DNA from: Myxococcales bacterium | GTDB lineage: Bacteria > Myxococcota_A > UBA9042 > GCA-2863065 | DNA length: 38,057 bases | Reading direction: 5' to 3' | NCBI GenBank assembly: GCA_018780435.1 | Contig: JADMJS010000239.1 | Span: 1-38,057, forward strand | Shown: positions 22,594 to 37,248 of the stretch, piece by piece | Numbering within the stretch: position 1 is the stretch's first letter | How the letters are laid out: every line of letters starts with the position of its first letter | Notes under the pieces: generated by a model | Told to the model about the DNA's origin: nothing | What the model saw: only the letters and a program-made list of their open reading frames with translations | The model's database searches: none | Translations under genes and position numbers: made by a program

Positions 22594-23154
22594 TCAGCCT
22601 GCGGAGAGCTGAAGGGGCGGGCGGTGCAAACCCCAGAAGTCGATGTCTGCTGACTCCAGGTTATCCTCGAATGCGTCCCAACCGCTGCGCTTCACGAACT
22701 CGGCCTCACTCCCATGGAGGGGAATCATCCATACGAACACCGTAGGCGGGGAGGTACCGTGGAACGTAGCGAACTCGCCCGGGAAGAACACCGGCATCGC
22801 TGCGTATAGGGCGTTCATCTGGACGCCCGCCATGAGGGGAGAACTTGGCCCGACAACGTCCCCCCTCAGAAGGGCACGGTCCTGAGCAGCGATGTACTCG
22901 CCGAAGGTCATGAGGAGGCTGGCGATGTTCGCTGGGTCATGTCGCTCGTGGGCCGAGAGGAGGAGTTCCTGGCGCACTTTACGGCCGTTGGGCATCGGTA
23001 GCGCTTGCCGACTCAGCCCCAGGGTCACGTACGTCACGACGTTGGGCTCCGGCTGGCCACGGAAGCGAACGACCTTGATCGGGGAACCACCTCCCGAGCC
23101 GCCCTCGATCACACCCAGGTACTTCTCCAGATGGGCAACAAGAGGCGTTGTCAT
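22594..23154 (-). CDS. SUFU-like (Imm-SUFU family) putative immunity protein for the upstream RHS nuclease.
   Basis: The ATG at 23154 overlaps the RHS stop (ATGA). VVTYVTLGLS, ELLLSAHE, PLMAGVQMNALYAAMPVFFP and VFVWMIPLHGSEAEFVKRSGWDAFEDNL match the suppressor-of-fused domain pattern used by polymorphic-toxin immunity proteins. An alternative GTG start lies at 23196. Confidence 0.5.
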   Translation of the reverse strand: MTTPLVAHLEKYLGVIEGGSGGGSPIKVVRFRGQPEPNVVTYVTLGLSRQALPMPNGRKVRQELLLSAHERHDPANIASLLMTFGEYIAAQDRALLRGDVVGPSSPLMAGVQMNALYAAMPVFFPGEFATFHGTSPPTVFVWMIPLHGSEAEFVKRSGWDAFEDNLESADIDFWGLHRPPLQLSAG

Positions 23155-26100
23155 GGGGCCGGATCGCCTCCTCGTGAACGGTTGCAGCCGGGGCACTCCA
23201 ACCGGGTGCCGGTGTTGTAGTCGTCGAGCACCTCCTTCCTCGTCATGTCCGTGTGATCACGCTTGCTCCACGGTGGCTGATGATCCACGTCCCAGTCCCG
23301 ACGGCCCTGCCCCGGGGCAACCTTCACGTCCTTGCCACACGTCGGACAGGCCTTGGTGCCCGCTTGCGACCCTGAAGCGGCATCGTCCCAGGCGTTCTGA
23401 ACGGTGTGCTTTCGGAAGCCACTGGGCCTCTTGGCTACGTTAGCTGCTCCCTTTGAGGCCAGATCATCGGCTGTCGCCAAAGATTGGCCAACACTCATCG
23501 TCTCATCGAGTGCGACCAAGTGTGTAGCGGCGGTGATGGCCACCTCAGCCGCGCCGCTTTCAAACTTGGCGATACCCGTCGAAATCTGGCGGTTGGAACG
23601 CTGGGATGACTCGGCGCGCGACGTCCAATCAGGTGCGAAGCCGCCTTCGGCCGCCGTATTTACAGCCCCTTGAACAGCCTGTGCTCCGCCCTCGTACATT
23701 TTTTTCGCGCCGTCTACGATCGGCCCATAAGTTACTCCCCAGATTGCCTTGCCAACCACCTGTGTCGCCGTGCTGAATCCGGCTACATATGCCTCACCTA
23801 TATCCTTGGCCGTTGGGGGCAGGTGATCGCCGCCATGATCTGTCAGAGACCGACCATCCGGATCCCAAAGCAGAGTCGGAGCCCCACCCACATAAGCAAA
23901 CGGCAACTGCTCCATGGGCGCCGCCCATGAGAGCGGATCGGACGAAAGCCAGCGAGCAATCTCCGGCGAGTACCAACGCGCCCCATGGTCGGTCCAAAGC
24001 GTGTTGGGATCGACGGGCTTGTTCAGCCAGCCATAAGGCTCATCCCCACCTGGCCCCTCTGTCGCCAGCAAGGGGCCATAAGGCTCATAGATCCGCTCTT
24101 CGAGCAGCGACGCATCCGCTCCCGTGACCAGCACGGGCCCGGCGGACACGCCTTTGTTCAGATAGCGAACTTCCACGGGCCCCGCCGTGGAGGGCACCTC
24201 GTCCGGCAAGTCGATCCGAGCGACGGGACGGTCCCCGACCTGGAGATAGAGCTGAAGCTCCCCCTCCACCGGGCGGTGCAGCAGACTGGGCCCAAAACGC
24301 CGCTCGGTGAGGACATCATCCTCCCACGACGCGATCCGCTCACCATCGGCGCCATACTGATACGAGAGCGGGTCCAGCCCCGTCCGCACCACACTCCGAA
24401 TGCGGTCATCGGCATCGAAGCGCTGATCCCAATCGGCGTAGGAGGTGGTGCGCCCCGCGTCGTCGTAGCCGAGCGTGAGCCCCGCCGCGCTGACGAGCCG
24501 CCGAGGGTGCGCCGTCCCGCCATACGTATAGGTGCCGAGCCGCGCGACGAGCCCCGACACGCTCGTGCTCGCCGTGCGCGATGTCAGGTTCTGTAAGGCA
24601 TCGTAACTATACGTGAAGGTGAGGGGTGATGGCCCGCTGCCGAGCGCCGCACCGACGAGTCGGCCCGCCGGGTCGTAGGCGTAGCGGGCGGTCTGGTCGA
24701 GGCCCGTGCTCGAAGCAAAGTCGGTGACGTCGACCGGGGCGCCGATTCCGTCGTAGCGCACGCCGAGGTCGAGTCGCACGGCGGGTGGGGGCAGGTCCCA
24801 GAGGGCGGCTTCGAGGTCGGCAGCTGCACCCGGGCTCGCGCCGGCCCCGACGACGGGGGTGAGCGCCATGGCGTCGCCGACGCGCACGCGCGTCACGAGC
24901 CCGAGGGCGTCCCGCTCGTAGGCCGTACCCGCGCCGCTGCCGAGCTGTTCCCCCCGCAAAGCACCGTTCTCGTCGTAGCCCGTCGCGGCCCAGAGGAGGA
25001 CCGGGTCTTCGTCGAGGCCCGGCCGTTGGACGTCCACGCGGAGAAGCCGGGTCGCCGCGTCGAAGCTCTGCGACAGTGCCAGGCGGTCCGTGTCGTCGTC
25101 GGCAAGCGTCGAGGCGAGCACGAGACCCGACGGCGAGAAGGTCGACTCCGTCGAGAGCGTTTTGCCGAGAAGGTCCCGCGTCGAGCGAAACTGCCGGCCG
25201 TCGGGCCCGAAGGACCAGCAGGTCGTCTCGAGCCGTTCGGTTGGCGTGCCCGACTCGACGAGGTCGAGTGTGACGCCGAGGAGTCGTCCGAGGCCGCCGC
25301 CCTCGCCGGCCGAGCAGCCCGAGAGCGGCGTGTCGTAACGAAAGGTCGAGAGCTCTTCGAGGGTGGCGGACAGGAGGCGCCGCGAGGTCAGGCGAGCAGC
25401 GCTGTCGTAGCCGTACTCGATACGGTCGGACTCGCCGTTCTCGGAGGCGACGAGGCGCCGGTCGTCGTCCCAGGTCCAGAGGCGGACACCCGAGTCCGGG
25501 TCGCTCGCGCGGCGGAGCCGGCCCAGGCTGTCGGTCACAAAGGTCCGGACGACGCGGCCCTCTTGCAGATCTTCGGTCAGGATGGCGCCGGCGGCGTCGT
25601 AGACGGTCTCTTGGACCTCCGTCTCCTCCGGGGCGCCGGTGACGAGCCGCGTGGCCCGAATGGCGCGCCCGAGGCCGTCGGACTCGACCGTGCTCACCGC
25701 GCCGCTCATCGCGACGGGCGCGCCCGTGGGGCCCTGGTAGGTCCAGGTCTGGCCGGTGGAGACCGTGAAGCGGCCGATGGACGCGATTTGAGTGACGCCG
25801 TCCGGGAGGCTGGGCGTCGGGGGCAGGTGATGTTCAATGACGCGGCGCTGGGCGTCGTAGACCAGCCTTTGTGACGGATGTCCCTCGGGGGGAGCCGGCG
25901 CGGCCGCCTCTCGCGGGTCGACGTTGGTCGCGTAGGGGCTGACGAGACGCGTCGTGAGGCCGAGGCGGTTGCGCTCTCGGTAGCCGCTCACGAGCCAGGG
26001 GCCGGCCGTGGTCCCCGTCGTCCCGGTGAAGGTCACTGTGTAGCGCGGCTCGCCGAGCCCGTTCACGGCGGTGACCGAGAGGCCGTCGTCGGCCGCGCCG

Positions 26101-36992: not shown

Positions 36993-37003
36993 GGGGGGGG
37001 GGG
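36993..37003. repeat. Homopolymeric G11 tract (C11 on the coding strand) at the extreme 5' end of the giant lipoprotein gene. A candidate slipped-strand phase-variation site.
   Basis: ctgggggggggggtacc is seen directly. On the minus strand it encodes VPPPPA between the upstream in-frame ATG (37024) and the signal-peptide ATG (36982). It therefore sits either inside the coding region or in the RBS spacer, depending on the true start. Confidence 0.7.
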
Positions 37004-37248
37004 TACCGTCGTCGTACTGACCATTCTGGGAATCCTACTAGATCGAAGACGCGGACATTCGCGGGTAGTTCATGCGAGCACCGTGACGTCGCGAAGATTG
37101 GTTTCGGACGAAACAAGGAGAATAGGCTGAATTTAGGCATGGACGTCACCTCTTCGACCGCTCGCCGCCTAGCTTCACCTTCGACGGACCACGATTGACA
37201 ACTTGGTACTACCCGTTCAGCCTAAGCTCATCCGCTTGGAGGTGTCCA

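Follow-up and report, generated by a model that had tools for sequence, protein, structure and literature searches.

A putative surface-anchored Tc toxin-like locus with a nuclease cargo and an immunity gene in an uncultured Myxococcales bacterium

Organization of the three-gene locus

The 38,057-bp contig JADMJS010000239.1 of an uncultured Myxococcales metagenome-assembled genome (MAG; assembly GCA_018780435.1), analysed here over its entire length and referred to below as the window, carries at positions 22594-37024 of the minus strand three consecutive open reading frames (ORFs) that encode, in this order, a giant lipoprotein, a fusion of the TcB and TcC components of Tc (ABC) toxins and a protein of the SUFU family (Table 1). 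A three-gene minus-strand locus had been proposed at this position in an earlier sequence-only reading, and all three ORFs were confirmed. The genes are joined by 4-nt start/stop overlaps, GTGA between genes 1 and 2 and ATGA between genes 2 and 3, and constitute a translationally coupled operon in which the start of gene 2 is most plausibly the GTG at 29327. The stop codon of the giant had earlier been placed inside the 5′ end of the RHS gene, which holds for the 4-nt GTGA overlap but not for an overlap of 240 nt, and the sizes then given, 2,060 amino acids (aa) for the RHS protein and roughly 2,550 aa for the giant, are corrected to 2,058 and 2,566 aa. In GenBank the giant is a "hypothetical" protein of 2,428 aa (MBT9556982.1) that starts at M139 and is 138 aa too short (window 36611-37024), a form lacking both the lipoprotein signal and some of the Cys-rich domain. 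The long form, beginning at the ATG at 37024, is considered to be right because aa 39-138 are ∼90% identical to P0002, a protein from another MAG that is the only close homologue of the giant (72% identity over the region searched). Scanning the two ends of the operon for promoters and terminators returned nothing informative.

The TcB-TcC architecture that the sequence-only reading had assigned to gene 2, with an SpvB domain, FG-GAP propeller, RHS repeats and a DPxG motif, agrees with matches in Pfam, NCBIfam and PDB, the best PDB sequence matches being TcdB2-TccC3 (1.6e-23) and YenB (1.2e-20), and with the presence of a DPDG autoprotease motif at aa 1822-1825. In Tc toxins, the FG-GAP propeller and TcdB_midN form the gate that docks on TcA. 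The cargo that follows the motif falls inside the 201-400 aa recorded for TcC hypervariable regions (Song et al., 2021), and the HNH nuclease tip and ATGA-coupled SUFU gene recognized earlier were both upheld by Pfam matches and by the overlap itself (Table 1). Five full-length BC homologues are 32-36% identical to gene 2 from the N-terminus to aa ∼1825 (WDPDG), beyond which they end in tips of 192-251 aa that are related neither to each other nor to the GH-E tip; this conserved chassis followed by unrelated tips is the signature of polymorphic toxins. Comparison of the tips and downstream ORFs of the related loci (designated by L numbers) with Pfam revealed no named toxin or immunity family except Ntox43 in L004. 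Signal peptides are also found on the BC homologues in L001, L003 and L011. The B and C parts are fused in the window, L004, L005, L008, L010 and L011, and are separate in L001 (10001-16251), L097, L098 and L099 (1936-12230), where a TcB of ∼1,500 aa is followed by a 576-aa or 1,935-aa gene overlapping its stop codon.

The C-terminal module and other parts of the giant lipoprotein

Searches with the giant against Pfam, NCBIfam, PADLOC and PDB sequences (phmmer) gave no match, and its likeness to TcA, the A component of Tc toxins, emerged at the level of predicted structure. The C-terminal module (aa 1520-2115) was modelled with AlphaFold2 (AF2) from a 29-sequence alignment without templates, giving a mean predicted local distance difference test score (pLDDT) of 74 that exceeds 90 in the beta domain. 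The model contains two antiparallel helices of 83 and 101 residues (module positions 54-136 and 145-245) with a Gly/Ala hydrophobic joint, followed by short helices and then a beta-sandwich. A Gly/Ala hydrophobic hairpin between long helices had been noticed in the sequence-only reading, and was located at aa ∼1640-1670 between two predicted helices; it is conserved in character across the family of the giant, even where the sequence has diverged. In a Foldseek search of the module model against PDB, all of the 21 best matches were TcA proteins (E 5.7e-8 to 3.5e-4, probability 0.99-1.00, ∼620 aligned columns), comprising TcdA1 (in prepore, intermediate and pore states), XptA1, XptA2, YenA2, TcaA-TcaB and TcdA4 (two genera). 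The match at rank 22 was an isolated TcB-binding fragment of TcdA1 and the first unrelated match had an E value of 0.05, and the beta domain of the giant matches the TcB-binding domain of TcA specifically. Global template modelling scores were low, as expected of a superposition between the hairpin of a free monomer and one subunit of a pentamer.

At the sequence level, hhalign comparison of a family profile with a TcA C-terminal profile of 10 members (SepA of pADAP and nine plasmid TcAs) gave an alignment over 92 columns with an E value of 5e-4 and a probability of 31%, and a 142-sequence family profile aligned with the TcA profile collinearly over the entire module (E 1.2e-3, probability 20%). 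The alignment pairs the hydrophobic tip with that of TcA and the terminal motif VEDVLLRFDYLSV with the terminal LxDIILHxxYT of TcA; comparison with SepA alone gave no result. We read this as indicating that the modelled module of the giant and TcA are remote homologues whose relationship would be clear only at the structure level. The resemblance of the hairpin to the TcA channel tip put forward previously is supported by the leading Foldseek matches, which also take in a TcB-binding-like domain; no match to the TcA shell was obtained among those listed for the model of aa 200-1110.

When the family profile was searched against PDB sequences, sub-threshold matches to MakA, NheB and MakE were also seen (E 0.03-0.2; giant aa ∼1700-1850), spanning the hydrophobic segment and the next helix (positions 200-327 of the A2 profile). 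These ClyA-family matches are probably compositional, and they fit a membrane-inserting hairpin. Identification of the giant as a ClyA-type alpha-pore-former was dropped, since the profile matches were sub-threshold and the fold searches pointed to TcA.

At the N-terminus of the giant, the lipoprotein signal proposed in the sequence-only reading stands (LLASG-C38), with the lipobox conserved in P0002 as LLATS-C and present in 41 of 84 full-length family members. Lys is an inner-membrane retention signal in Myxococcus xanthus lipoproteins, and the Ala that the giant has at +2 is not that signal. An AF2 model of aa 200-1110 (48 sequences, pLDDT 66) consists of Ig-like sandwiches, a mixed region and a helical domain; among the 50 Foldseek matches listed for this model of pLDDT 66 there was no TcA and only generic beta-sandwich proteins (E ∼3e-4). 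Between the helical domain and the C-terminal module lies an insertion (aa 1101-1520) that is absent from typical family members and matched nothing in Pfam or PDB (PDB relatives being sought for aa 1101-1529); that it is the receptor-binding part is a guess.

Gene 1 is a mosaic in composition. Window positions 31745-33724 (aa ∼1100-1760) have a GC content at third codon positions (GC3) of 0.44-0.59, compared with 0.72-0.81 in the flanks, and identity to P0002 is 39-57% over aa 1100-1700, reaching 72% by aa 1760, compared with 85-97% in the flanks. The low-GC3 divergent stretch covers both the variable insertion and the pore hairpin, and the combination of low GC3 and low identity is suggestive of a cassette replaced through recombination, or of diversifying selection, within the A-like gene. 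At the other end of the protein, the Cys-rich tail described earlier is present, with a length of 434 aa (aa 2133-2566) rather than 450 aa. Annotated plasmid TcA genes of L092, L094 and L095 (Sinorhizobium, Bacillus and Rhodococcus) continue for ∼170 aa past the end of a SepA-like TcB-binding domain, and a tail such as that of the giant therefore has a precedent in classical TcAs.

Table 1. Features of the three-gene locus, in window coordinates (aa positions refer to the protein concerned).
Feature	Position	Strand	Basis
Gene 1, 2,566-aa giant lipoprotein, divergent TcA-like A component (predicted)	29324..37024	-	ORF; GenBank MBT9556982.1
Lipoprotein signal peptide, aa 1-38, lipobox LLASG-C38 (…LTLAGLLASG-C38), Ala at +2	36911..37024	-	Read from sequence
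N-terminal Cys-rich domain, aa ∼60-200, 22 Cys within first 200 aa	36425..36847	-	Cys counts; kept across family
Predicted Ig-like beta-sandwich domains, aa ∼217-510	35495..36376	-	AF2 model; Foldseek matches are generic beta-sandwiches (complement C3 MG domains, pilins)
Helical domain, aa ∼740-1100, including family-wide block DVPIYFVDPAGTNSKFFATSDYLLNNWARPA, aa 1012-1042	33725..34807	-	AF2 and conservation
Lineage-specific variable insertion, aa 1101-1520	32465..33724	-	GC3 0.48-0.58; 39-53% identity to P0002
TcA-like pore-forming helical hairpin (predicted), aa ∼1573-1764, Gly/Ala hydrophobic tip aa ∼1643-1668	31733..32308	-	AF2, Foldseek, hhalign
TcB-binding-domain-like beta-sandwich, aa ∼1879-2109	30698..31390	-	Most conserved part of the giant's family
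Cys-rich C-terminal tail, aa 2133-2566, Dickkopf_N/DUF7107-like repeats	29327..30628	-	Only closest relatives have one
Gene 2, 2,058-aa TcB-TcC fusion (RHS cocoon)	23151..29327	-	GTG start overlapping gene 1 stop
Sec signal peptide, aa 1-29 (ASSASA/FE)	29241..29327	-	Read from sequence
SpvB/TcaC N-terminal domain, aa 64-126	28950..29138	-	PF03534 2.9e-16; PDB TcdB2, YenB
FG-GAP beta-propeller, aa ∼350-611, and TcdB_toxin_midN, aa 615-766	27030..28280	-	PF13517 (FG-GAP_3) 5e-17; PF12256 1.6e-13
RHS/YD repeat shell and RHS-associated core, ending WDPDG, aa 1821-1825	23853..26930	-	PF05593, TIGR01643, TIGR03696 (Rhs_assc_core 3.4e-11)
233-aa polymorphic cargo	23154..23852	-	After WDPDG
GH-E type HNH/EndoVII nuclease, aa 1990-2054, CxxC...DH...CxxC	23166-23360	-	PF14410 1.2e-14
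Gene 3, 186-aa SUFU-family immunity protein (predicted)	22594..23154	-	PF05076 7.7e-23; ATG overlaps gene 2 TGA

The family of the giant and its pairing with TcB genes

An exhaustive HMMER search with giant aa 900-2090 as query, clustered at 50% identity, identified 439 cluster representatives at E ≤ 1e-3, 364 of them at E ≤ 1e-10. Word-indexed homologue searches had recovered only the giant itself and P0002, with one Myxococcus protein added by a family profile, and a genome scan using the giant/P0002 alignment picked out Cys-rich patterns and no relative. Homology covers aa ∼1520-2110 of the giant and, in almost all matches, ends only a few residues from the C-terminus of proteins of 1,400-2,100 aa, C-terminal extensions such as the Cys-rich tail being confined to the nearest relatives. 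Iterated searches extended the regions shared by the family to the Cys-rich domain at the N-terminus and to aa ∼250-450 and ∼700-1100. No significant Pfam domain was present in the four full-length members and the 29 C-terminal modules that were scanned. All 80 loci found in species-representative genomes belong to Myxococcota, including Bradymonadales, or to MAGs left unclassified as "Delta/Proteobacteria".

Whether the giant gene and RHS genes are co-conserved in Myxococcota had been raised as a check in the sequence-only reading, and giant homologues do immediately precede TcB-like genes in 15 further loci, giving 16 members when the window is counted (paired loci L001/2, L004, L005, L008-11, L013, L014, L016 and L096-99, with the family member 9-250 nt upstream except in L005). 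Co-conservation and structural similarity to TcA were the two points on which the sequence-only reading could have been refuted, and neither comparison refuted it. Viewed from the A side, a TcB-like gene adjoins in 8 of the 68 GTDB loci that have enough downstream sequence, at a distance of 99-630 nt (an apparent ∼1.4 kb in L005). Viewed from the B side, of the six closest TcB homologues whose context is known, five are preceded by a large gene without Pfam match that ends 9-116 nt upstream, and all of these upstream genes encode members of the family (E 1e-93 to 1e-203). In the Myxococcus locus L004, for example, which includes WP_141253630.1 and belongs to a culturable carrier, a 1,503-aa family member is followed by a 1,966-aa SpvB-propeller-TcdB_midN-RHS-Ntox43 protein and a 142-aa ORF. 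A neighbour-joining tree of the last ∼300 aa of family members, constructed without bootstrap support values, places all 16 TcB-linked members (including that of the window) on one side and all 57 members of known context without a TcB on the other, and there is therefore a TcB-linked subfamily with complete synteny alongside a larger subfamily without an adjacent TcB. Chance adjacency of the giant and RHS genes is rejected because of this synteny and the tree.

In the TcB-less subfamily (L017-L084, 57 loci; e.g., L032, 6992-11623), the TcB-binding-like domain is still the most conserved part. Directly downstream of the TcB-unlinked member of L032 (11655-14615) lie an extracytoplasmic function (ECF) sigma factor (PF07638) and a Ser/Thr kinase-tetratricopeptide repeat (TPR) pair, ORFs of matching size and position occur in L045 and L063, and a kinase-TPR gene is found directly upstream of the TcB-linked member of L001 (1059-3635). 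These neighbours may represent a regulatory module, or chance, which is possible because myxobacteria are rich in kinases. In L044 (10876-13818), the stop codon of a TcB-unlinked member is also where a 980-aa protein begins that has four FG-GAP repeats and, in addition, disintegrin-like Cys-rich repeats; this propeller protein, which has neither SpvB nor RHS, is a possible alternative docking partner.

Elsewhere in the window, a 232-aa ORF (13834-14532, plus strand) with a GC content of 0.59, below that of its neighbours, matches TIR_2 weakly (2.8e-4, short of the Pfam cut-off) and may be a defence or NADase-type gene. A run of predicted lipoproteins on the plus strand (1777-6955 and 14627-16216) includes two CotH kinase-domain proteins (4e-31 and 1.9e-53) flanking a beta-helix protein; further along are a calpain-like C2 peptidase (4.4e-13) and, at 10390-13536, a ceramidase-like protein.

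Relation to known toxins and interpretation of the locus

Gene organization, domain content, predicted fold similarity, conserved synteny and polymorphic tips are established for the locus and can be compared with those of Tc (ABC) toxins such as TcdA1/TcdB2-TccC3, YenA/B/C, SepABC and XptA. The gene order, A followed by B-C, is the same, as is the BC cocoon of SpvB, propeller, TcdB_midN, RHS shell, DPxG core and a cargo of ∼230 aa, and the A proteins of both have a long helical hairpin with a hydrophobic tip and a TcB-binding-type beta domain, here as predicted. The systems differ in that here A is a lipoprotein and BC has a Sec signal, whereas the classical subunits are signal-less and released by lysis (type 10 secretion system); in the giant no TcA shell, neuraminidase-like domain, receptor-binding domain (RBD) or TcA Pfam signature was detected and a Cys-rich tail follows the binding domain; and the host, which belongs to the phylum Myxococcota, pairs a nuclease cargo with a cognate immunity gene. 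A survey of 1,608 canonical Tc loci contained no immunity genes and listed no Myxococcota (Song et al., 2021).

Judged by their sequences, genes 2 and 3 are members of the "TcdB/TcaC" class of polymorphic toxins, which was described as having a signal peptide, SpvB, an integrin-like propeller, RHS and variable tips including HNH-fold nucleases, and as occurring in delta-proteobacteria among others; Imm-SuFu immunity proteins pair with HNH-fold tips (Zhang et al., 2012; PMC3482391). The window genes share the signal peptide, SpvB, propeller, RHS, HNH tip and downstream Imm-SuFu with this class, although the GH-E tip is absent from the table for that export class and the paper, which treats a BC-type toxin with immunity, never mentions a TcA/TcdA-type partner. 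The pair of BC-nuclease and immunity gene is thus not new in itself because that class had already been defined. The sequence-only reading had called a bacteria-targeting Tc-like injector or a new RHS delivery partner undescribed, and of the A-like partner no description was found. Our search of full-text literature, outside which many subscription papers lie, found neither a TcA-like protein in Myxococcota nor a bacteria-aimed Tc toxin with an A partner. The novelty resides in the A-like partner, and we regard the locus as a Tc/ABC toxin variant and not as a categorically new system.

The Rhs4 and Rhs5 toxins of M. xanthus are likewise myxobacterial Rhs proteins with Sec signals and polymorphic tips, but are ∼4,000 aa long and located on Mx-alpha prophages; large signal-peptide Rhs toxins of this species kill non-kin without a type VI secretion system (T6SS) or outer membrane exchange (OME), by a delivery route presumed to be surface display (2023 review; PMC10433427). 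Bacterial teneurin-like proteins (Raoelijaona et al., 2026; PMC13018210), the subject of the nearest recent work, share the YD-shell, encapsulated C-terminal toxins and immunity genes and are, as here, Myxococcota-enriched with predicted lipoprotein targeting via signal peptidase II (SPII); they differ in possessing an FN-plug and NHL propeller instead of SpvB and FG-GAP, and in being single polypeptides without an A-type partner. The T6SS Rhs effectors (RhsA-VgrG1, Tse/TseI) also have an RHS cocoon, autoproteolysis, nuclease tips and immunity genes, but carry PAAR or VgrG-binding N-termini where gene 2 has an SpvB/propeller head, possess no signal peptide and depend for delivery on a contractile machine; the window itself contains no evident T6SS genes.

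It seems fairly probable that the products of the locus form a complex resembling Tc (ABC) toxins that has been adapted to act from the myxobacterial cell surface, and such a surface-anchored Tc variant probably serves interbacterial delivery. We infer oligomer state, surface location, docking, translocation, target organism and toxicity along the following lines. The A-like lipoprotein would be displayed at the outer membrane and oligomerize, and the BC propeller would dock on its C-terminal beta domain, the cocoon of gene 2 enclosing its own nuclease after autoproteolysis at WDPDG. On contact with a neighbour, the hydrophobic tip would enter the target membrane and the unfolded nuclease would be threaded through; in target cells without a SUFU-type protein the DNA would be cut, while gene 3 would shield the producing cell and its kin. 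Anchoring and target recognition might be supplied by the variable cassette in the centre and by the Cys-rich or Ig-like parts. The segment of ∼165 aa that separates WDPDG from the nuclease contains Gly/Ala-rich hydrophobic stretches and might, speculatively, help in crossing the inner membrane. Bacterial targets are argued for because an immunity gene is present (Zhang et al., 2012; PMC3482391).

Several observations weigh against this proposal. No TcA Pfam family (VRP1, Neuraminidase, TcA_RBD, TcA_TcB_BD) and no PDB sequence matches the giant, the 29 C-terminal modules of the family match nothing in Pfam at E values up to 10, and the sequence likeness to TcA is weak, with hhalign probabilities of 20-31%. 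The evidence for the TcA fold is a predicted model, and the evidence as a whole consists of sequence and predicted models from an uncultured MAG. N-terminal of the channel, no TcA shell, neuraminidase-like or RBD match was found in the aa 200-1110 model of pLDDT 66, which means that the giant cannot be taken to share the syringe mechanism by which TcA passes from prepore to pore. The 434-aa tail follows the putative TcB-binding domain, at which most family members stop. A TcB neighbour is lacking in 57 of the 73 members with known context, and the module may therefore serve a more general role. Finally, one TcA-type channel spans one membrane and a Gram-negative target has two.

In one alternative, the same A+BC machine would be aimed at eukaryotes (amoebae, nematodes, fungi, or the prey and grazers of a predatory soil bacterium) and immunity would protect the producer only against leaked or misfolded nuclease. 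This would suit a channel built for a single lipid bilayer and HNH nucleases, which are toxic in any cell, and all characterized Tc toxins act on eukaryotic cells, with no immunity-bearing Tc locus found by Song et al. (2021). We nevertheless consider it unlikely, as polymorphic toxins that act within a species or between bacteria are typified by close coupling to an immunity gene and by a conserved chassis ending in unrelated tips, the export signals on both subunits point to surface display instead of release by lysis, and large myxobacterial Rhs proteins act in kin discrimination (PMC10433427). A different possibility, to which we give little credence, is that the giant forms no channel and serves only to keep the RHS protein on the cell, as a surface scaffold or adhesin, entry being receptor-mediated as for CdiA/WapA and the TcA-like fold a docking remnant. 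Its N-terminal 1,500 aa are indeed adhesin-like (lipid anchor, Cys-rich repeats, Ig-like sandwiches), the TcA shell was not detected and the review places myxobacterial Rhs proteins on the surface like contact-dependent inhibition (CDI) toxins (PMC10433427); however, a purely docking protein would not need a Gly/Ala-tipped hydrophobic hairpin, which is kept in character family-wide, and the entire pore and binding module is collinear with TcA. That the giant is a stand-alone ClyA/MakA/Nhe-type pore-forming toxin, lying next to the RHS gene in a toxin island, is very improbable: the sub-threshold MakA, NheB and MakE matches over the hairpin and the lack of a TcB neighbour in most family members would be in keeping with it, but no ClyA-family structure occurs among Foldseek matches at E <1 (AhlB, E 2.4), the beta domain matches the TcB-binding domain specifically, and the start/stop overlap together with 16/16 synteny in one clade argues for a functional pair.

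The surface-anchored Tc variant may also be part of something broader. A tentative proposal, which we hold at slightly short of even chances, is that a Myxococcota-wide lipoprotein family ends in a TcA-type channel and docking module, and that one clade of it is the long-sought delivery partner of Sec-exported SpvB-RHS toxins in contact-dependent injection between bacteria. If true, this would account for Rhs-mediated killing by myxobacteria without T6SS or OME, and Tc toxins would no longer be limited to eukaryotic targets; members of the TcB-unlinked clade would employ the channel either for different cargo or to form pores. The accepted view of Tc toxins is one of exotoxins directed at eukaryotes and built around a stereotyped TcA syringe; a lipid-anchored A protein without a detected TcA shell, an exported BC and a nuclease/immunity cargo would mean that the Tc translocation module is reusable and has been recruited for bacterial warfare, and a minimal TcA channel on another scaffold could interest those engineering Tc toxins for protein delivery. 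For the myxobacteria themselves, the A-like family is a concrete candidate for the exit and entry route of their large signal-peptide Rhs toxins, and the locus would offer a first way into the structure and function of no fewer than 439 sequence clusters of "hypothetical" proteins of 1,500-3,700 aa.

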